Source: Gemmatimonadota bacterium
Lineage (GTDB): Bacteria > Gemmatimonadota > Gemmatimonadetes > Palauibacterales > Palauibacteraceae
Reading direction: 5' to 3'
DNA: 64,000 bases
Assembly (NCBI GenBank): GCA_046758745.1
Contig: JBHIAV010000002.1
Location: forward strand, 49,441-113,440
Position numbers and translations under genes: made by a program. Shown here piece after piece: positions 2,466 through 11,212 of this stretch (positions are counted from its first letter, which is position 1; each line of letters opens with the position of its first letter). Below the pieces are notes generated by a model. The model worked only from the letters and a program-made list of their open reading frames with translations. It was not told where the DNA came from and did not search any database.

Positions 2466-2736
2466 CTTTCTCTCTCGCAGCCGCTGGGCCGCCGCCTCGG
2501 GTAGACCCGGGGAACGCGTTCGACCCTTGCTCCCGGCCGCGGGCTTGGCGGGCGCGCCGGGCCCGTTCCGCTGCTGCCGCGGCCGATGATAGCCCGTTCG
2601 GGAGCGGAGTCAATCGGCCGCCCGGCGGTTCACTTCACCGGATGAGAGCCGCGCGGGTGAGCGGCGGGACCGGCCGCGCTGCGCGGCGGCTGGCCGAGCA
2701 GCAAGACTGATGATAGACGGTTGATCGCCCTCCCGG

Positions 2737-5700
2737 ATGGTGAGGGCAGTGGAGAGGGGGATGCGGGTCGGGCGGCGAGGCTTCGCACCGGAAACGCTTA
2801 TGTACCATCTCCAGAGCTTCGGCGGCGTCGCTCTCACCGGTGGAGATGGCTCCAGCATCCGACTGCGCTCCCGGAAACACCTCGCGCTACTCCTCTTCCT
2901 GGTCGCGAACGGACGACGGGTGCACACGCGCCGCGAGCTCGCCTCGCTCCTGTGGGACACTCCCCCCGGACGAGCGCGCCATTCGCTCAGCCAAGCGGTC
3001 TATGACCTGCGCTGCCGGCTCGACGGGATCATCCTTGGGTTCCCCGGGGAGGAGGTCCAGCTCGATTCAGGCCGAATCCGCTACGACGTCGACGAGCTTG
3101 AGCGAGCGGTCAAGGAGGGCAACCTCGGTCGAGCCGTTGAGTTGTACCGCGGCCCGTTTGCCACCAACCTCGACACCACCGGTACGGATGACTTCGAGCG
3201 GTGGCTCGAGACCGAGCGAGTGCGCCTCCAGCGGCTCGTTCACCTCTCGCTGCGTCGGTACGTGAAGGAGTGCGACGCCCACGCCAAGTGGGGGGAGATG
3301 TGCGTGGCCGCTCTCAAGCTGGCCGACATGGATCCGCTGGACGAGGAGGCGCACCGTGCCCTAATGCGGGGCTTGTGGTTACATGGCGATCGCACCTCGG
3401 CCCTGCGCCACTACGAGGAGATCTCCGCCTTTCTGACAAGTGAGCTCCCCGGGGGGATCTCCAGCGAGACGCGGCAACTGGCCGAGCGGATCCGCCACGA
3501 GCCGGCCGAGGGGGCGACCATCGCTACGTCTGCCGCCGAGAACCGGCCGCCCCTCGTCGGCCGTGGGCAGGAATTCGAGTTCCTCAAGGACGCAGTTAGG
3601 GAGCTTCGCCGTGGTCGGGCGGGGACAGTGGTCGTGCAAGGTGAACCGGGGATCGGAAAGAGCAGGTTGATCCAGGAGTTCGTCCGCTCGGCATGCCTTG
3701 AGCCGATCCGCGTGCTTGAAAGCCGCTGCTACGCCGCTGAGAAGGACGTGCCGTACGGCCCGGTGGTCGATGGCCTGCGTCCGATCGCAGAACAGATGGC
3801 ACGTACTCTCCCGAACGACGGCTGTCAATACACCCGGCTCGGTCACCTCTTCCAAGAGTTTGCGTCCTTCATGCAGCCGGAGATCGAGCACGGCGTCGAT
3901 CCGAATGCCTGGCGCCGTCGACTGTACGAGGAGGTGGCCGATTTGGTGCGGAACGCCTCGGAGTGGGCACCAATCTTGTGGGTAGTGGAGGACATGCACT
4001 GGATGGATGCCACCTCCCGATCCTTACTCCACTACCTGTCACGGAGGTTGGCGGAGCGTCCCTTCATGCTGGTCATGACAGAGCGCGTCGGCAAGACGCA
4101 TGTCGCTGTTCGTGCGCAACGGCGCAGACCGCCTCGTCCTGGGGAAACGATGGACCTCGTGCTGCCGCCGCTCACCGATTCCGAGATCGGGCAGCTCGTC
4201 GCCGAGGCTCTGCCCGAGGCGAAAGAGCACCCGGCGGTCGAGCTCGCACAGAAGCTGGCAGGGGGAAACCCGTTCTACGCGCTCGAGGTATTCCGGGCCG
4301 CATTCGCGTCGGCGGAGTGGATCGCCGAGGCCGACACCTGGGATCCCCTCACTGACGCAAGGTTGAGCGATGTCTTCGACATTCGCTTCCGGAACCTTCC
4401 GGACGGATCCCTTAGAATCCTGCGAGCCGTGTCCGTACTCGACCGCCACGCTACCCCCCGGCATGTCGCGGCCTTGGCCTCCCTGTCGCTGCAAGGAGCT
4501 GCCGACGTTTCCACCGAGCTGTACGAGCGCGGTCTTCTGGTTGACGGAGATTCCGAACTGGATTTCGTCAACGACATTGTGCGGGAGTACGTGTACAAGA
4601 GAATGAGCTCCATGCAGCGAGCAGCCCTGCACCTCGCTGCCGCGCAACAGCTCGATGGCGAGCCAGGAATCGGTGCGGCCACATTGGCCAGACATTACCA
4701 TCTGGGCGACGACAAGCCGAATACCTTCAAGTGTGGGATGCAAGCCGCGACCGAGGCGAGCTCGTCGGGTGGCCATCTCGAGGCTGCCTCGATGGCCACT
4801 CTCGCTCTGGCTGCAGCGGGCGAGCGGGACGAGACCCTCAGGGCTTTGCGAATCCTGGCGAGCGCCGAGCTCCTATCAGCACAACTGAAATCGGCGCAGG
4901 AGCACTACTCTCGGATTCTCGACCTCGACACCGAGATGTCGCTCGAGGCGAGAATCGAGACGAAGCTACACATCGTAGAGACGATGGCGGAACTGTCAGA
5001 GTGGGACGGAGGGCGGGAGTTGCTGAGCAGTCTCGCGGATGAGATTGAGAACATCCCTGAACCTACGGTACAACTTCGAACCCGTGCGGAGACACTTTTC
5101 TGGAGCCTCAAGATTGCAATGCGCCAGAACGACTGTGAAGCCGCACGTGCAATTGCCTTGTCTGCACGTCGGCTCCGGGACACGGCAGTCACTGAGGGAA
5201 CAGTCACCCCTGTTGCCGATGTCTCAGCGCTTTGCTGTGTAGCAGCCTACACCGCTTTCTTTGAAAACGCAGAAGATGCGCTTCAGCTCATTCAACTAGC
5301 TGAGAGGCGGATTGGGCTGATACCGGACTACTTGATCGAGAGGGTCCGACTCTTCAGTGGGATGGTCCGGCTACGGATGGCCCTATGGGATGAGGGGGAG
5401 CAGGATATCCTGGCGGCGATCGATCTGGCACGTAAACGTAAGGATCTAGTGCAGCTCAGTACCCTATGGAACAACTTGGCTTGCTGCGCTCTCGAACAAG
5501 GCGACTGGGATCGTTTCGAAAAGACTGCATCTATGGCAGAATCTATTCAAGAGAAACTACCAGTCCAGCTGGACGTTACGCTGCCATTGACGATCAATCG
5601 AGCTAACTCTCTCTTCTATCAGGGACATCCGCAGGCCGCAGGCAAGCTCTATAAGACCGCCCTCGATTCTGCGCTTGGCTTAGGATCTCGAGAGTTCGTA

Positions 5701-6126
5701 CCTGAGCTGATGGCCTGCCGAGGACTGACCGCGCTACAGCTTGGCGATCGCGCAACAGCAGAAAAGATGTGGAACGGCGTCAAGGACTTGGACGCCGCGA
5801 AACTGGCAGGTGTCCAGGAACGGTTCAAGCTTGAATGGTTTCGGGGATATCACCTAAGGAACGAAAGCTCCGCAGAGGCAGGTAGTCGGTTCTTCAAGGC
5901 TGCAGAAGAACAGGAGTTTCTCGACGTTCCAAGTTACTTGAAGATGCTGTGGCTCGGGTGCCTCTTGTTTCCGAAGTTGACTCGAGAGAGCCTGCGAGAA
6001 GCTGACCTGTTGGAACGTCTGAGGGCGGCGCGAATGTGGTGGTTCTCGAAGTTTGCCAAACGTTGGCTCAGAGCAACGGACTACCACGCACGTCGCCTAA
6101 GCCGATTCCGCGGAGCGCGAAGCTAG
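2737..6126 (+). CDS. SARP/AfsR-like regulator: winged helix + BTAD + AAA ATPase + TPR-like helical C-terminus
   Basis: 'RKHLALLLFL...RRELASLLW...RHSLSQAVYDLR' (wHTH), 'DPLDEEAHRALMR' (BTAD), Walker A GEPGIGKS, Walker B ILWVVEDMHW, GGNPFY. Start codon uncertain (2737 to about 2800). Confidence 0.88.
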   Translation: MVRAVERGMRVGRRGFAPETLMYHLQSFGGVALTGGDGSSIRLRSRKHLALLLFLVANGRRVHTRRELASLLWDTPPGRARHSLSQAVYDLRCRLDGIILGFPGEEVQLDSGRIRYDVDELERAVKEGNLGRAVELYRGPFATNLDTTGTDDFERWLETERVRLQRLVHLSLRRYVKECDAHAKWGEMCVAALKLADMDPLDEEAHRALMRGLWLHGDRTSALRHYEEISAFLTSELPGGISSETRQLAERIRHEPAEGATIATSAAENRPPLVGRGQEFEFLKDAVRELRRGRAGTVVVQGEPGIGKSRLIQEFVRSACLEPIRVLESRCYAAEKDVPYGPVVDGLRPIAEQMARTLPNDGCQYTRLGHLFQEFASFMQPEIEHGVDPNAWRRRLYEEVADLVRNASEWAPILWVVEDMHWMDATSRSLLHYLSRRLAERPFMLVMTERVGKTHVAVRAQRRRPPRPGETMDLVLPPLTDSEIGQLVAEALPEAKEHPAVELAQKLAGGNPFYALEVFRAAFASAEWIAEADTWDPLTDARLSDVFDIRFRNLPDGSLRILRAVSVLDRHATPRHVAALASLSLQGAADVSTELYERGLLVDGDSELDFVNDIVREYVYKRMSSMQRAALHLAAAQQLDGEPGIGAATLARHYHLGDDKPNTFKCGMQAATEASSSGGHLEAASMATLALAAAGERDETLRALRILASAELLSAQLKSAQEHYSRILDLDTEMSLEARIETKLHIVETMAELSEWDGGRELLSSLADEIENIPEPTVQLRTRAETLFWSLKIAMRQNDCEAARAIALSARRLRDTAVTEGTVTPVADVSALCCVAAYTAFFENAEDALQLIQLAERRIGLIPDYLIERVRLFSGMVRLRMALWDEGEQDILAAIDLARKRKDLVQLSTLWNNLACCALEQGDWDRFEKTASMAESIQEKLPVQLDVTLPLTINRANSLFYQGHPQAAGKLYKTALDSALGLGSREFVPELMACRGLTALQLGDRATAEKMWNGVKDLDAAKLAGVQERFKLEWFRGYHLRNESSAEAGSRFFKAAEEQEFLDVPSYLKMLWLGCLLFPKLTRESLREADLLERLRAARMWWFSKFAKRWLRATDYHARRLSRFRGARS

Positions 6127-7431
6127 ACCTCGCTTGGCAGCGAGGGACACTGGCTTGCTCGGGCCCACTAAGTCCTCAAGGATACCCGTCGCGACAACAA
6201 CCGCCACGACCTTCGGGTCGAACTGCGTCCCACTGTGCTTCTGCAGTTCCTCGCGAACAACCGTCACAGGAAGCGCCTCTCGATAGGGCCGTGCTGTGGT
6301 CATGGCGTCGATCGTATCGCAAACCATGATTATCCTTGCTCCGAGCGGTATTTCTTCCCTCGACAGTCCCGCAGGATAACCCTCCCCGTCGAAACGTTCG
6401 TGGTGGTGCCTTACACAGCGAAGTACCTCGCGGTGGATACTACGAATCGACTTGATGATGTCCACTCCCCGATCGGGGTGAGCGCGGATCAAATCTCGCT
6501 GTTCGGGCGTCAGAGGTCCTTTCTGTCGAAGGATCTCGCCATAGGCAACGTCGATCTTGCCGATATCGTGCAAAAGAGCGGCTGTTTCGATGATCTGTGC
6601 ATATCGCGGCCTGAGTCTCAGCGCTCTGGCGATCCTGCTGGCTGCCTCCGCAACTCGGATGGAATGACCCGACGTGTACGGATCCTGTGCTTCGATAGTC
6701 TTCACCATCAAGCGAAGCAGGTCTGTGTTCAACTGCTTCAGCTCGAAATTAATGCCATAGCTGTAGCGCAGGCCGATTAGCGGGATAATGGCCAGCAGCA
6801 CGGCAATAGGTCCCCAGCGTGTGAAGGAAACGGCGACGAGATAGGCAAGAGGGCTCATGGCGATGTCAAAGATGATCAGACCGCCCGTAATATTTCTCCA
6901 AGCCTCGCGGTACGTGTGCCCTTCTGTAAGCGACACAACGTATGCGACGGTACCCGTGTTGACGGCGAAATAGGCTAGTACGGCCATGAGAAAGGGGGGA
7001 AACGTCTGACGAAAGTCGATGCTTTCCAGACTCTCGACGCCCCCAAACCACCTAAAAACCAGACTTGCCGCAGAGACAGCGAGGACGAGCTGGGCGGTAT
7101 TGAACAGCTTCTTATAAAAAATCTTGTCGCGATAAAGAAGGAATTCCGAGAAAACCTCCGAGATGAGGGTGACTGTTACGGCACCGGAGGGTCCCAGGAG
7201 CAGAACGGCGCCCAGTTCAGGTATGAAGTCCATGGACGTGGTTGAGCCACTCTCTGAGAACTTCAAGTATAGCATCATGCTGACGATGCTTAGCGCTAGG
7301 AGAGTTGCGAAAGCAACCACAAGATTGCTGGAAGAGGGGAGGGGGTAGCGCCAGAAAATAAAAGCTGCTGAGAACGCTGCCAGCGTCGCGGCGGCGTAGA
7401 CTACAACGCGCAGGCGAGTGTCGATGGTCAT
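6097..7431 (-). CDS. Membrane-bound HD-GYP c-di-GMP phosphodiesterase with multi-TM (MASE-type) sensor domain
   Basis: About 230-aa hydrophobic N-terminus with about 7 TM segments, then DPYTSGHS, LLHDIGKI, HHERFDGEGYP, RPYR and GTQFDP. Confidence 0.93.
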   Translation of the reverse strand: MTIDTRLRVVVYAAATLAAFSAAFIFWRYPLPSSSNLVVAFATLLALSIVSMMLYLKFSESGSTTSMDFIPELGAVLLLGPSGAVTVTLISEVFSEFLLYRDKIFYKKLFNTAQLVLAVSAASLVFRWFGGVESLESIDFRQTFPPFLMAVLAYFAVNTGTVAYVVSLTEGHTYREAWRNITGGLIIFDIAMSPLAYLVAVSFTRWGPIAVLLAIIPLIGLRYSYGINFELKQLNTDLLRLMVKTIEAQDPYTSGHSIRVAEAASRIARALRLRPRYAQIIETAALLHDIGKIDVAYGEILRQKGPLTPEQRDLIRAHPDRGVDIIKSIRSIHREVLRCVRHHHERFDGEGYPAGLSREEIPLGARIIMVCDTIDAMTTARPYREALPVTVVREELQKHSGTQFDPKVVAVVVATGILEDLVGPSKPVSLAAKRGLASRSAESA

Positions 7432-7457
7432 CTACTGAGGACCCCCAACCCCTGCTA

Positions 7458-7553
7458 TTACCACCTGACCGTTCCACCCCAGCGGACCGTTCCACCCCAG
7501 CGGACCGTTCCGCCGAACAACCTGGCAAGCCAGTTGGTGCTGATCAGTAGCAT
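7458..7553 (-). CDS. 31-aa small peptide MLLISTNWLARLF(GGTVRW)x3; putative signalling/RiPP-like precursor, not in the ORF track
   Basis: ATG at 7553 with AAAGGAGGTG 7 nt upstream; TAA followed immediately by TAG; three 18-nt repeats that differ only synonymously. Confidence 0.82.
   Translation of the reverse strand: MLLISTNWLARLFGGTVRWGGTVRWGGTVRW
7461..7514 (-). repeat. 3 x 18-bp tandem repeat encoding GGTVRW
   Basis: Minus strand: GGCGGAACGGTCCGCTGG / GGTGGAACGGTCCGCTGG / GGTGGAACGGTCAGGTGG. Confidence 0.95.
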
Positions 7554-7560
7554 CGAAGCT

Positions 7561-7570
7561 CACCTCCTTT
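7561..7570 (-). promoter_or_regulatory. Strong Shine-Dalgarno site for the small peptide
   Basis: AAAGGAGGTG on the minus strand, 7 nt before ATG 7553. Confidence 0.85.
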
Positions 7571-7576
7571 CGAGTT

Positions 7577-7609
7577 GAAGACATACCCGTTCGCTACAGG
7601 GTATGCTTC
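7577..7609. other. Stem-loop just upstream of the peptide RBS
   Basis: GAAG-A-CATACCC (7577-7588) pairs with GGGTATG-CTTC (7599-7609); 10-nt loop. Confidence 0.55.
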
Positions 7610-7806
7610 GTCTCCGCTCGGAGGTCGCTCCGCTCAGCTCTCGGTGGCGAGCCGCAGAGATTGGGGGTTCCTCTGGCTATCGCATCCCGGTCTATAGGTT
7701 TATCTGCGGCGCCAAAACGACTAAGCGCGCTGGGCCGCAAGGCTTCCCACAGTCGACCCAAGAAAGAAAAGCAATTGCAGGCCGCAACGCAACTGGGCGC
7801 CGGGGA

Positions 7807-8508
7807 TTACTTGTTCGCTATCCAGCGGTTGGTGGCGTGAAGGCAGGCCAGAACAGCCGCCTCCTCTGGCGAGTCCTGCACTCTGCCGATCCCGGCCAGG
7901 CAGACCGTGGTACGTCTGGCGTGGTCGTGAACGACAACCGCGAGCAGGCGACGTCCCAAAGCGTCGATCTGACTCACCCCCTCCAAAGAAAGGGAGGTCT
8001 TGTCCCCCGTGGCCTTCTGGATCGCCTGCAGAACAGCGTCGCAGGCGACCTCGAGGCGAGACTTCGCGTAGTCGGGACCCTCGGCCTCTCCGACGTACTC
8101 GGTGTCGCCAGAGCGCAGCTGCACCCGGCAGGAGACCTGCTGACCCGTCTTGCGCTCGATGTGGAATCCGTCTAGGAGGAAGCGTCTGGCGCCAGCCTGC
8201 GTCTCGGCCTCGGCCTCGGCCTCCGAGACCACGGGGATCTCGGGTCCCTTCAGCCTCGCGACAGAGATCTTGCGGTGGTCTATCTGGAGGCCGAACTCCG
8301 CGAGGAGGGCCGATTCGATGTTGCGGACGATCTGTTTCGCCGAGAGGTCAGCGACGCTGAGCACGTGAATCTCATCGATGCCGCCATGCCCATCGGGCAC
8401 GATCTTCAGGGAGCTCACCCCATCGAGACCCACCAGCAGCTTTTCGATCCGGCGCAAGCCCCAGGGATCCACGCCCCTTGCCGCCGGCTCTCCGGCCTCT
8501 CGGCTCAT
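7807..8508 (-). CDS. Conserved hypothetical protein ('EIHVL...KQIVRNIESAL...IDHRKISVA' N-domain; C-domain resembling the LeuA allosteric domain)
   Basis: ATG 8508 overlaps the upstream TGA (ATGA) and has GGAGG upstream; 233 aa. The longer 8796 start overlaps the GGDEF gene and is unlikely. Confidence 0.78.
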   Translation of the reverse strand: MSREAGEPAARGVDPWGLRRIEKLLVGLDGVSSLKIVPDGHGGIDEIHVLSVADLSAKQIVRNIESALLAEFGLQIDHRKISVARLKGPEIPVVSEAEAEAETQAGARRFLLDGFHIERKTGQQVSCRVQLRSGDTEYVGEAEGPDYAKSRLEVACDAVLQAIQKATGDKTSLSLEGVSQIDALGRRLLAVVVHDHARRTTVCLAGIGRVQDSPEEAAVLACLHATNRWIANK

Positions 8509-10235
8509 CGAACGAGCTTCCCTCCGATCGCGGGGTGTACAGTGTTGCCTCCGTGCGCCTTGGCAACATAGAGAGAGGCATCCGCCTCCGCCATCAGGGC
8601 CTCGCTCGTCAGAACGGACCGCGCCGCCCCTGAATGATAAGCGAGACCAATGCTTAGCGTAACCCCCGCCTCTCCCTGTGGCGTATGAACCCGGAAGGTC
8701 TCTGCCTGAGATCGAATCTCCTCGGCCACCCGCGCGGCGCCCTCGGGGTCGGCGTTTACGAGGATAAGAACGAACTCGTCGCCTCCGAAGCGACACGCGA
8801 TGTCGGTGGCCCGGATGGCTCCTCTCAGGATATCGGCGACACCCCGCAGGATGTCGTTGCCGGCTGCGTGACCGAGCCGATCGTTGATCGGCTTGAAGTC
8901 ATCCAGGTCGATGAACAAGACGGCGAGGGAGGTACCGCTCCGATTGGCGCGTGCCACCTCCTGAGCCAAGCGTTCCTCGAGTACCCGATACGTGAAGAGT
9001 CCGGTGAGGGCGTCATGCATGGCGTCGCGTGACGCCTGCTCGACCTGACGTCCCAGGTAGTAAGGGCAGATCGATAGGGTGGCCCGTCCTCGGGAGATGG
9101 CATCGGCGAAGTCGACGCACCTCGCGTGGCCGCAGGCCCCGCAATCCCAGTACGCACCGCCGGGAGCCCTTCCGATTCGCTCGAGCACGCGAGCCGCTTG
9201 CGCGGAGTCGGCCGGTGGAAGCGCCGCGGCATTCGGCTCGAAGGAGGCGCTGAGATCCAGAGCCGGCGGAACATCGACTACGGGCTCCCCGGAACGCCCG
9301 CCTTCCGCGAGCTCGGCGATCGCTTTGCGCCAGAAAAGGTCCTCATGCCGCCCGAAGGCGGGATGATCGAGGCTGCCCTCGAACGGTAGGACGTCGAGGA
9401 AGCCGAGTTCGCGTTCGCTGCTGACCACCGCTTGGGCGACGGCGCTCAGGGCGTGCAGGCCCCGGATCTTGCTGAACCGCCGCGATGAGAGGGACTCCTC
9501 CTCAAGCATGGCCAGCGGAAGCCCACCCGCGGTGGAGAGGTGACGGCGCCGCTCCGGCGGGATGCGCTCGAGCGTGAGGGGCTGCCTCTCCGGGTCCGCG
9601 CCCTTGTGGATCAAGAGATCCTTCAGCTCCTCGAAGGAGATGCATGCGCTGATACCCTGTTCGTCGCGGTCCGGCCCTGGAGTCGCCAGACCAGCGTAGA
9701 TGATCCTGTATTCTGGCCCGTAATGGGTGCGAAGAAACCGACCGAGGGCAACGGCAGGCGTGACGATGGGCGCCAGGAAGGGCAGCAGGGCGGGGAGCCT
9801 GACTCGGCAGTAGTCGACCACGATGGAGCTGGTGGAGCGGATCCACGTCCTGGGGGAATCTTCCCGCCACAGGCGCAGATACTCGTGCGCCACCAGCTCA
9901 TCGCCCAAGGTCTCAAAGTATACGCCGTGAAAGCCCGCCCGGAAGCAGGCGTTGATGATCTGCTCTGGCGTGGCCGGGTGGAAACTGACGGCCACTTCGG
10001 CCGGTAAGATGAGGATCGCCCGGTCCTTCTCGATGGCTTCCCGCACCTCCCGGATGTCACCGACGACGTCGATAGCATCGTGGTGGCAGGCCGGAACGCA
10101 AAGGCCGCACTCGATGCACGTCTCCCCGACGATCCGCACCTCGTTCCCCGAAACGGCGATCGCCTCGACGGGACAGACGCGGACGCAGGCCATGCACGCC
10201 GTGCAGTTGTCGTTGACCGAGAAGCTAAGGTTCAC
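8505..10235 (-). CDS. Diguanylate cyclase with 2x[4Fe-4S] ferredoxin, degenerate [FeFe]-hydrogenase large-subunit-like domain and small Fe-S domain
   Basis: CTACMACVRVCP and CIECGLCVPAC; DCGACGHARC...CP; HDALTGL, IDLDDFKPIND, RATD I-site 5 residues before GGDEF. Confidence 0.9.
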   Translation of the reverse strand: MNLSFSVNDNCTACMACVRVCPVEAIAVSGNEVRIVGETCIECGLCVPACHHDAIDVVGDIREVREAIEKDRAILILPAEVAVSFHPATPEQIINACFRAGFHGVYFETLGDELVAHEYLRLWREDSPRTWIRSTSSIVVDYCRVRLPALLPFLAPIVTPAVALGRFLRTHYGPEYRIIYAGLATPGPDRDEQGISACISFEELKDLLIHKGADPERQPLTLERIPPERRRHLSTAGGLPLAMLEEESLSSRRFSKIRGLHALSAVAQAVVSSERELGFLDVLPFEGSLDHPAFGRHEDLFWRKAIAELAEGGRSGEPVVDVPPALDLSASFEPNAAALPPADSAQAARVLERIGRAPGGAYWDCGACGHARCVDFADAISRGRATLSICPYYLGRQVEQASRDAMHDALTGLFTYRVLEERLAQEVARANRSGTSLAVLFIDLDDFKPINDRLGHAAGNDILRGVADILRGAIRATDIACRFGGDEFVLILVNADPEGAARVAEEIRSQAETFRVHTPQGEAGVTLSIGLAYHSGAARSVLTSEALMAEADASLYVAKAHGGNTVHPAIGGKLVR

Positions 10236-10667
10236 GACTGCGTCCGCTCGGTGCGTGTATCATGAAACGGCCCCGATCATGGCGGGTCCGAGGGCCTCTC
10301 CGGTGACCGGCGAGGGGTACAAGAAACATACCCGGGCCCAGGTCCCGTGGGAAGCGCGGATCGGTCGTCGGGGTAGGAGTGTAACCACTGTAACGTGTTA
10401 CTACAACGTACATTACGTCCGTGTGGAAATCGTCGTCTGCTATTCCGGCAGACACGTCCGTGGAGCGGGTGGCCGACCTGTGGCGTCTGGACAACGGGAC
10501 TCTGTGTCTCCCGAAGAGCGCCTTTCGCACCGAACCGGGCCCCTGAACCGGCCCCTGGGGGGCCCCTGGCACTCGCCCTCTCACGGGGCGGCGTGTAAGA
10601 TGTGCACGGCAGAGGCGGCCGGTGCTAGCGCGCGGAGCGGTCGACGAACCTATCGGGATCAAGGGAG

Positions 10668-10967
10668 ATGGGTGGGTCTGCACTTCTCAAGAAACTGCTG
10701 TGGCGCCTCGACGGTGCCGCCGACAGCGCCAAGGTCGAATTCATCAGCGAGGCCGGCAACCGATGGGAGGCTGAGTTGTCGCTTCACTCCGGTACCGATC
10801 CCCAGTCCCCCCGCCTCATGATACTGTTCCGGAACCGGTCCGCCCCGCACACATCGCAGCGCTACAATCTCGCGCCGATCGGGGTGTCCAAGGTCCCCCG
10901 TGAGGCGGCGAAACAGCTCAGTGAGGCGGAGCTTCGGGAGCTCCTCGCAACCTCCGTGGAGCTGTAG
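10668..10967 (+). CDS. Small hypothetical protein (paralog 1)
   Basis: 99 aa, GGGAG RBS, ends [16 protein letters not shown]. Confidence 0.7.
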   Translation: MGGSALLKKLLWRLDGAADSAKVEFISEAGNRWEAELSLHSGTDPQSPRLMILFRNRSAPHTSQRYNLAPIGVSKVPREAAKQLSEAELRELLATSVEL

Positions 10968-10975
10968 GAAGCCCG

Positions 10976-11212
10976 GTGGCCCGGACGATCTACGATGACG
11001 GCCTCCTCAAGTGGGAGGTGTACGTCAGCGGCGGGCAGCCGAACTCGAAGGTGGCCGCCCGAATCTTCTTTCTCTGCCTCGACGCTCCGATGACGCCCGC
11101 CCGCTGTGTGCTACGGGAAGACGGCGACGTCGCCGCCGCCCAGCGAGCCATCATGGAAATGAGCGACGATGATCTCAGAGAGCTGCTCGCAACGAGCGTC
11201 GAAGTCGGCTGA
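10976..11212 (+). CDS. Small hypothetical protein (paralog 2)
   Basis: 78 aa, GTG start 8 nt after the previous stop, ends [17 protein letters not shown]. Confidence 0.7.

Follow-up and report, generated by a model that had tools for sequence, protein, structure and literature searches.

The 64,000-nt stretch of a Gemmatimonadota genome analysed here (the window; contig JBHIAV010000002.1 of assembly GCA_046758745.1) contains a locus in which a gene for a 31-aa peptide lies directly before the gene of a predicted cyclic di-GMP (c-di-GMP) phosphodiesterase, which converges with the gene of a large SARP-type STAND regulator. Comparison with related loci suggests that two sensor regions vary with the C-terminal hexapeptide, or core, of this peptide: the MASE9 domain of the phosphodiesterase and the TPR end of the regulator. 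We judge the chances to be evenly balanced that the hexapeptide is a released, type-specific signal for which these two regions are the cognate sensors. Conservation of the locus, an RNA structure around the peptide gene, selection on the core at the protein level, co-variation of core and sensors and a direct repeat before the regulator gene are all apparent from sequence comparison. A first-pass annotation had described four co-oriented minus-strand genes combining an intact GGDEF cyclase, an intact HD-GYP phosphodiesterase and a repeat peptide; domain and motif searches agree with it on these points, and it had overlooked both the RNA leader and the direct repeat. Loci, genomes, genera and families are numbered with the prefixes L, G, g and f, respectively, G000 being the genome of the window.

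The peptide gene (7458-7553, minus strand) is preceded by AAAGGAGGTG, with a strong Shine-Dalgarno (SD) sequence at 7561-7570, and encodes a short hydrophobic N-terminal part followed by three GGTVRW cores (7514-7497, 7496-7479 and 7478-7461). Peptides were obtained from 41 of 48 metagenome matches to the leader. The end GGT[VL][RK]W is shared by 21 distinct peptides of 13-31 aa, in which the part before it differs in length and may contain inserted charged residues. The terminal GGTVRW is spelled by eight different DNA sequences. The pattern G-[GA]-x-hydrophobic-[RK]-W recurs in most loci, with three copies in the window, whose repeat unit aligns with the Bacillota peptide end G-A-x-aromatic-[KR]-W. 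The terminal unit has been duplicated in frame five times independently (in the window, genus g20, L007, L043 and L254), and the duplicate copies differ by 14 silent changes and a single replacement (14:3 if the L043 junction is counted), where about 41% silent changes would be expected if the inner copy were free to vary (P = 4e-5 and 6e-4). Among nine Desulfosporosinus genes, pairwise differences amount to 185 silent and 87 replacement changes in the first 20 codons and to 18 and 100 in the last four, a pattern indicative of purifying selection on the N-terminal part and of a four-residue tail that varies within a fixed pattern. At the protein level, the C-terminal hexapeptide thus appears to be the selected unit of the peptide gene. 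The N-terminal part comprises 17-22 residues in Bacillota, basic and then hydrophobic, and could span a membrane there; in family f1, often only 8-10 residues precede the core, and Lys/Arg and Pro insertions are tolerated. Trp-sensing attenuation was rejected on the ground that many cognate peptides lack a terminal Trp and end in -I, -L, -M, -A or -V.

The phosphodiesterase gene (6097-7431, minus strand) encodes an N-terminal MASE9 domain (about 6718-7431) and an HD-GYP domain with intact HDIGK and HHERFDGEGYP motifs. The Pfam MASE9 match reaches 38.7 bits at a cut-off of 24.3, and by its domains the enzyme belongs to the MASE9-HD-GYP phosphodiesterases, with c-di-GMP hydrolysis as its predicted activity. 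All parts were available for 58 of 84 loci, which gave 477 pairs with at least 50% identity in HYP, a conserved hypothetical protein of 233 aa encoded upstream of the leader (7807-8508, minus strand). Partial correlations allowing for HYP and HD identity were 0.57 between MASE9 and core, 0.06 between MASE9 and the peptide N-terminal part and -0.09 between HD and core. Where HYP was 75-95% identical, MASE9 identity was 77% in pairs with matching cores and 48% in pairs with different ones. L233 and L240 have different cores and share 96% of HYP and 47% of MASE9; their DNA is 91-96% identical to about 150 nt before the peptide and 52-76% thereafter, the drop lying just upstream of the 5' arm of the leader helix. 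In the MASE9 tree of family f1, K-type and R-type cores occupy separate clades across genera (SH-aLRT 98 and 92). The domain sorts mainly by core position -2 (Arg or Lys), and its residue 72 may help to set specificity, being Glu in 9/10 R-types and Gln in 4/4 K-types. A tree of HYP plus the regulator N-terminal part pairs L264 with L266 of family f3 (support 100), a grouping that was named after a first tree, with L260 as a long branch, and that is rejected for MASE9 (p-AU 0.002); the peptide tails of both resemble those of their MASE9 neighbours. By these measures MASE9 identity tracks the hexapeptide and not the peptide N-terminus or the host. Modelled as a complex, MASE9 and the 31-aa peptide scored 0.02, a value that speaks neither for nor against binding. 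In L305 (G212), MASE9 is split over two frames. G238 carries TGSLDW and AGKLDW peptide-MASE9 types on different contigs (L230/L298 and L240), as a strain mixture or a true double, and its second peptide-MASE9 copy has a deletion of the AGCG block of the leader.

The regulator gene lies on the plus strand (2737-6126), with a start at 2800 probable rather than at 2737 because homologues begin there, and encodes wHTH, BTAD, AAA (Walker A and B both present) and TPR regions, the C-terminal TPR part covering about 4834-6066. In genus g13, this part sorts exactly by core position -3 (seven Val, three Leu), a split expected by chance once in 120 if the genomes are independent. TPR identity is 58-69% among five GGTVRW genomes, 54-70% among three GGTL[RK]W genomes and 31-41% between the two groups; seven Arg-type MASE9 domains of the same genus are 84-93% identical across Val and Leu cores. 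At the DNA level, only the TPR segment drops between Val and Leu types (51-64%, with 71-84% in MASE9-HD), and the 1.3 kb that separates core from TPR shows no sorting by Val or Leu. No pair is closer in the regulator N-terminal part (89% identity) than L285 (Val) with L288 (Leu), which share 88% of MASE9 and 41% of TPR; their grouping is rejected for TPR (p-AU 7e-4). Two split-regulator rows were nearly empty in one TPR tree, and conflicts from that tree were set aside. In genus g15, both sensors split between TGSLDW and AGKLDW types whose N-terminal parts are up to 94% identical. Held-out genomes comprised two GGTVRW members of g13 with a Val-type TPR part (one partial, on another contig) and one member of g15 matching its core type. 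We propose that the two sensors would read different residues of the core, MASE9 mainly position -2 and, in genus g13, TPR position -3. The first-pass annotation had asked whether peptide cores co-vary with the sensor domain and had raised the regulator as a possible second peptide sensor; it is the C-terminal core that co-varies with MASE9, and among close relatives the TPR end does so too. In L307 (G229), the TPR end is reduced to about 50 residues.

HYP was matched in 35 of 41 related genomes. Within the same order, 20 loci were compared: the cyclase gene is upstream in 18 and the HD-GYP gene downstream in 18 (the other two being contig ends), and the regulator is convergent in 10 of the 11 loci with enough sequence. 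Of 20 loci from other families, 19 have HYP as a neighbour, 15 the regulator and 11 the Fe-S cyclase. Five genes flanking the locus in the window occur in only 0-1 of these 20 loci, and co-occurrence of the module therefore exceeds general synteny. Beyond the phylum, the best 80 of 550 HYP loci were sampled (Bacillota, Actinomycetota including Coriobacteriia, Sumerlaeota and Armatimonadota), 68 of which have enough downstream DNA; HD-GYP follows HYP in 59 of them. All 59 enzymes match our own MASE9 profile, and 8 of the 15 tested pass Pfam MASE9. A peptide was found in 55 of these 59 loci versus one of the nine without HD-GYP; in Gemmatimonadota it was detected in 41 of 44 loci and is visible in the remaining three. 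Leader and peptide stay with HD-GYP in the two loci where it has moved away from HYP (L037 and L056). Neither the regulator nor the Fe-S cyclase as a neighbour was found in the 80 loci from other phyla, five of which have a match to the cyclase N-terminal part in opposite-strand Fe-S proteins with no GGDEF in the visible part. Since peptide and HD-GYP are kept there and cyclase and regulator were not found, leader, peptide and MASE9-HD-GYP appear to form the universal core unit, usually behind HYP, with the Fe-S cyclase and the BTAD-AAA-TPR regulator as lineage add-ons. The genes thus travel together well beyond general synteny, as the first-pass annotation had asked to see; its push-pull switch, in which redox or Fe-S input would drive c-di-GMP synthesis, is weakly supported, given this distribution of the cyclase, whose activity nothing links to the peptide. 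Such a switch is possible in this lineage, and unsupported outside it. Cultured carriers of the unit are Desulfosporosinus acididurans and Thermosediminibacter litoriperuensis.

Several neighbourhood variants stand beside this unit. L255, L257 and L259 (G030 and G024) encode MASE9-HD-GYP in genomes where no leader repeats, peptide or full HYP were found, and may represent orphan receptors. L272, L277 and L278 (families f11 and f12; 3/20 other-family loci) lack cyclase and regulator and carry a same-strand B12-binding radical SAM gene after MASE9-HD-GYP, whose product could modify the peptide. In many Bacillota loci (L081-L160), HD-GYP is followed by a DUF5317 gene, often just before secA; Asn, Asp and Gly positions are invariant in its product, and the model is confident (pLDDT 93) but matches no solved fold. 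A role as a signal-peptidase-II-like enzyme processing a Cys-less lipobox, considered because of a motif likeness, drew no support from hhalign (probability 1.4) or from two fold searches, neither of which listed LspA.

A structured RNA leader occupies 7673-7437 (minus strand), where 261 nt of the window fold at a z of -5.4. Across 17 aligned loci, a 13-bp helix encloses leader and peptide gene (5' arm at 7654-7673, 3' arm at 7437-7455), and a 7-bp hairpin with an AGCG loop (7582-7606; 6/7 pairs changed on both sides) directly precedes the SD sequence of the peptide. Compensatory change affects 14 of 20 pairs, a level reached in 0/500 shuffles (kin being non-independent), and pairing drops from 92% to 31-51% in slid controls. 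The helix has a z below -2 in 34/41 Gemmatimonadota loci and 48/60 others; in 14/41 Gemmatimonadota loci, no partner scores better than the 3' arm of the same locus. AGCG(G/A)A repeats (block at 7612-7640) are the most conserved letters of the leader. The 3' arm starts 2 nt past the peptide stop and covers a G-run resembling an SD sequence before the HD-GYP start, and this position suggests that in the window peptide translation is coupled to the HD-GYP start, adding a translational layer. In family f2, the 3' arm lies about 40-60 nt from the start codon with a U-run behind it, and SD occlusion is therefore not universal. Rfam 15 gave no match in the window at gathering score (best in 7380-7830, E 6.6). 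In L024/L041 (G026), a deletion between short direct repeats has removed the core, the 3' arm and the phosphodiesterase start, by loss or as an assembly artefact.

Upstream of the regulator gene, an 11-bp-period direct repeat resembling a SARP box (2709-2726, plus strand) recurs in 30 of 38 loci, versus a mean of 0.05 and a maximum of 1 in shuffles, the pattern having been drawn from the same upstream regions in which it was counted; the spacing is 11 in 31 of 39 pairs. Strong copies elsewhere in G000 lie between dnaA and dnaN (G000:C6:94872), before recN (G000:C41:16883) and in an intergenic region at about 60395 of the window. A wider regulon was considered and rejected: the sites before dnaN and recN are kept in only 2/28 and 1/28 genomes, and genome-wide the 11-bp spacing is unenriched (34 matches versus 18-111 for other spacers). 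With these other sites unconserved, the repeat suggests autoregulation of the regulator through a predicted site, and nothing wider.

Under the two-sensor reading, the peptide would be a precursor with a freely varying hydrophobic N-terminal part, whose C-terminal hexapeptide would be released by a protease, exported and act from cell to cell. The core would bind membrane MASE9 and set the activity of the attached HD-GYP phosphodiesterase; in Gemmatimonadota it may also be read by the TPR end of the convergent regulator, which would then act at the direct repeat before its own gene. A change of one codon in the core is matched by a domain that lies 1.3 kb off in an opposite-strand gene, and the neighbouring codon matches MASE9, so that binding of the core by both would be the simplest account. 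The long helix would cover the phosphodiesterase SD until translation of the peptide opens the receptor start, the leader thereby coupling supply of the signal to the response, with HYP as the likely binder of the AGCG repeats. In this lineage, the Fe-S cyclase would be a co-transcribed background setting c-di-GMP according to redox or Fe-S status. We infer that the peptide activates rather than inhibits, because the NOD and TPR regions inhibit in AfsR and activating signals may have been missing for HdgA (both compared below). More tentatively, and on balance less probably than otherwise, the system may represent an unrecognised, widespread pheromone family of uncultured diderms and anaerobic Bacillota, in which position -2 would be read by the phosphodiesterase and -3 by a STAND activator to give combinatorial kin types; multi-core precursors would then raise the dose, and the structured leader would tie synthesis of signal and receptor.

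Several observations weigh against the two-sensor reading. The 477 pairs behind the MASE9 correlations are not independent, and core and MASE9 adjoin (25-60 nt in most loci), so that recombination moves both together and linkage contributes. The repeats behind the count of silent changes were detected by amino-acid likeness, which biases it toward silent differences. The TPR signal comes from only two genera, g13 with 10 genomes and g15 with seven; over the full set of 252 pairs (38 loci), TPR and core are weakly correlated (partial correlation 0.11-0.18 versus 0.34-0.36 for MASE9), because TPR is too diverged between genera. For the g13 regulator N-terminal part, a Val clade is not rejected (p-AU 0.18), and part of the sorting may therefore be ancestry; both added g13 genomes are of the commoner, Val, type, and in G205 the TPR part of the regulator was not found. 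The direct repeat is absent from 27 cyclase upstream regions and 64 HYP-to-leader regions, and no feedback on the peptide gene is therefore seen. The locus encodes no dedicated protease or exporter (the genome outside the locus was not searched), DUF5317 occurs in 0 of 151 Gemmatimonadota genomes, and in a diderm host cell-to-cell action must cross two membranes. Finally, HYP persists in 4/4 tested genomes without MASE9, as judged by our own alignment, Pfam MASE9 having missed positive controls in five non-Gemmatimonadota genomes; HYP is therefore not dedicated to the leader.

The strongest competitor, which we consider unlikely but still of real weight, is that the product is neither cut nor exported and stays attached to the membrane as a micro-protein. 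Its tail would bind MASE9 and TPR from within the cell, making it a transient partner or guard of both. Such a partner would report ongoing translation or membrane insertion, and its loss on stress or phage shut-off would flip phosphodiesterase and STAND regulator. It would fit all co-variation results equally well, would need neither the protease nor the exporter that the locus lacks, and could be anchored by the Bacillota N-terminal parts of 17-22 residues; the pairing of 5' and 3' ends in a transcript that encodes a small hydrophobic peptide also resembles that of type I toxin-antitoxin transcripts. The 8-10 residues preceding the core in f1 are, however, too few and too variable to keep a constant geometry across a membrane, the selection on extra internal cores better suits a multi-core precursor, and types that cross genera are easier to explain if cells tell self from non-self.

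Hitchhiking is improbable as the whole explanation: peptide, MASE9 and TPR would lie in a fast-evolving, recombining block of low GC at third codon positions (GC3), in which the sensors diversify under external pressure and the peptide follows them by linkage and ancestry. GC3 is indeed 57-60% in MASE9, HD and the TPR end versus 70-87% elsewhere (mean of 11 relatives), cassette breakpoints exist, and both the weak global correlation of TPR with core and the unrejected Val clade for the regulator N-terminal part would be expected. Linkage leaves unexplained why the 1.3 kb between core and TPR in g13 ignores Val and Leu, why L285 and L288 share 89% of the N-terminal part yet 41% of TPR, with their TPR grouping rejected, and why MASE9 tracks the core but not the adjacent N-terminal part of the same tiny gene. 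The low GC3 across 4834-7553 of the window is common to relatives, even in the well-conserved HD domain. Recent horizontal acquisition of this part is rejected, as relatives share the low GC3 and trees of cyclase, HYP and regulator N-terminal part contain no supported conflicts.

Still less probable, and slight in our estimation, is that the reading frame is a translational leader only, with a product that has no target. The helix covering the phosphodiesterase SD would then be opened by ribosomes that pass along the frame or stall at its Trp codon, under the control of HYP bound to the AGCG repeats. The covarying helix that encloses the frame, its 3' arm over the SD-like G-run and HYP folds compatible with ligand and RNA binding suit this reading, but it does not explain the core-specific divergence of MASE9 and of TPR on the opposite strand, many cognate peptides end without Trp, and the f2 arm lies far from the start codon.

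HYP matches no Pfam or NCBIfam family at cut-off, and its named homologues are from Gemmatimonadota. Its predicted model (pLDDT 87) has an N-terminal domain of CDF-CTD/BolA-like alpha-beta fold (6vd9; Z 9.2, rmsd 2.1, 68 aligned) with the invariants H48, KQxVRNxESAL and DHRKxS, and a C-terminal domain with the fold of the LeuA/citramalate-synthase regulatory domain (3f6g; Z 10.6, rmsd 2.9, 110 aligned, 14% identity; Foldseek match to LeuA, E 1e-6), for which ligand binding is predicted at most. HYP is a candidate ligand-sensing binder of the AGCG repeats, RNA binding being a guess. It is kept elsewhere in both genomes in which the leader is separated from it, and was not found in two single-contig genomes in which MASE9 is likewise missing. 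Paralogues of the C-terminal domain without the N-terminal domain occur at G000:C7:77913-78374 and G000:C32:12456-12854, and in many relatives.

The HYP start overlaps the cyclase stop as ATGA (8505-8508), the coupling noted in the first pass, and HYP is followed by a terminator-like hairpin with a U-run (7772-7795, minus strand; a pattern match only). The Fe-S diguanylate cyclase (8505-10235, minus strand) combines 2x[4Fe-4S], Fe_hyd_lg_C and FeS domains with GGDEF (GGDEF at residue 484, I-site RATD at 475, DLDDFKPIND present). None of the three H-cluster cysteine motifs tested was matched, and residues 51-364 contain only three Cys; the domain thus appears [FeFe]-hydrogenase-like but cofactor-less, and the protein falls outside the sensory hydrogenases. 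Upstream, a motif at 10318-10332 (minus strand), read by eye in several f1 loci without statistics, is the probable -35 of an operon promoter. Two small genes divergent from the cyclase (10668-10967 and 10976-11212) stand beside it in 7/7 f1 loci and in 0/20 loci of other families. The 30-nt overlap of the convergent regulator and HD-GYP 3' ends, to which the first-pass annotation drew attention, is present in the window, but its length is not conserved among relatives (4, 23 or 24 nt, or short gaps). On G000 contigs C3, C7, C9, C14 and C32, six or more other genes encode relatives of the window's regulator with BTAD or AAA regions.

Compared with described systems, the peptide system appears, from its genes and domains, to work like SHP/Rgg, ComRS and agr/comQXP while falling outside the definition of each. 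Like agr and comQXP, it has conserved flanks around a hypervariable peptide-plus-sensor block, and its types cut across host relatedness. The domains of the five locus genes include neither a maturation enzyme (no AgrB or ComQ) nor a histidine-kinase receptor; unlike in agr/comQXP, the predicted output is c-di-GMP hydrolysis, and another gene, on the opposite strand, contains a second variable block. Parallels also exist with small membrane modulators such as MgrB-PhoQ and with leader ORFs that control a sequestered start site, in that the peptide stop abuts the SD helix and a small hydrophobic product lies beside a membrane sensor, but neither kind of system accounts for the tandem cores or for a match to two receptors at particular residues. 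A place among clusters for ribosomally synthesised and post-translationally modified peptides (RiPPs) finds no basis in the window locus, where Pfam and NCBIfam detect no RiPP modifying enzyme.

As in SHP/Rgg and ComS/ComR, a short hydrophobic precursor with a conserved C-terminal part lies beside the gene of a regulator with a putative peptide-reading repeat domain, and peptide and receptor are matched (accessible text of PMC7564271, which gives a 24-aa SHP precursor and a 9-aa mature peptide in one described case). By its sequence the precursor is thus of the type that serves RRNPP receptors, with activity predicted. No member of that receptor family (Rap, Rgg, NprR, PlcR, PrgX or ComR) was detected by Pfam or NCBIfam, the regulator giving BTAD, AAA_16, TPR and Trans_reg_C. 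Unlike those systems, this one combines an 1100-aa wHTH-BTAD-AAA-TPR regulator, a membrane HD-GYP enzyme as the universal partner, a structured RNA leader and a diderm host phylum. The literature search returned no description of this peptide-MASE9 system, subscription journals being mostly outside its coverage; PMC13724677 and PMC13157175 concern, in their accessible parts, other systems.

The phosphodiesterase has the same architecture as the MASE9-HD-GYP enzymes TM1467 of T. maritima and HdgA of S. venezuelae, whose accounts, in their accessible parts, refer neither to a ligand or peptide gene nor to an RNA leader or HYP (10.1101/2021.11.05.467447, PMC6205966); the word 'peptide' does not occur in the main text of the former. 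MASE9 is thought to bind its ligand within the membrane, no ligand being given in the accessible text (10.1101/2021.11.05.467447), and activating signals may have been missing in the case of HdgA (PMC6205966, in part). The regulator has the wHTH-BTAD-NOD-TPR architecture of the large SARP regulator AfsR, with a Walker NTPase, and as in AfsR a direct-repeat site of 11 bp, the form of SARP boxes, lies at the predicted target promoter, where binding is likewise predicted (PMC10936776, in part). According to the same source, NOD and TPR inhibit the SARP domain in AfsR, which is controlled by phosphorylation and ATP, and its main text does not use the word 'ligand'; the TPR end of the present regulator, by contrast, co-varies with a peptide. 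MASE9 has no known ligand, none is named for the AfsR TPR domain in the accessible part of PMC10936776, and the hexapeptide is a candidate for both; if this is correct, MASE9 would have its first ligand, and a large SARP regulator one that is a peptide. If the peptide acts between cells, peptide signalling would extend to an abundant diderm phylum and be linked directly to c-di-GMP. The comparison yields predictions at the level of residues, Arg or Lys at -2 for MASE9 and Val or Leu at -3 for TPR, together with natural matched and mismatched pairs, and what it adds to these known systems is evidence on the specificity of core and sensors.

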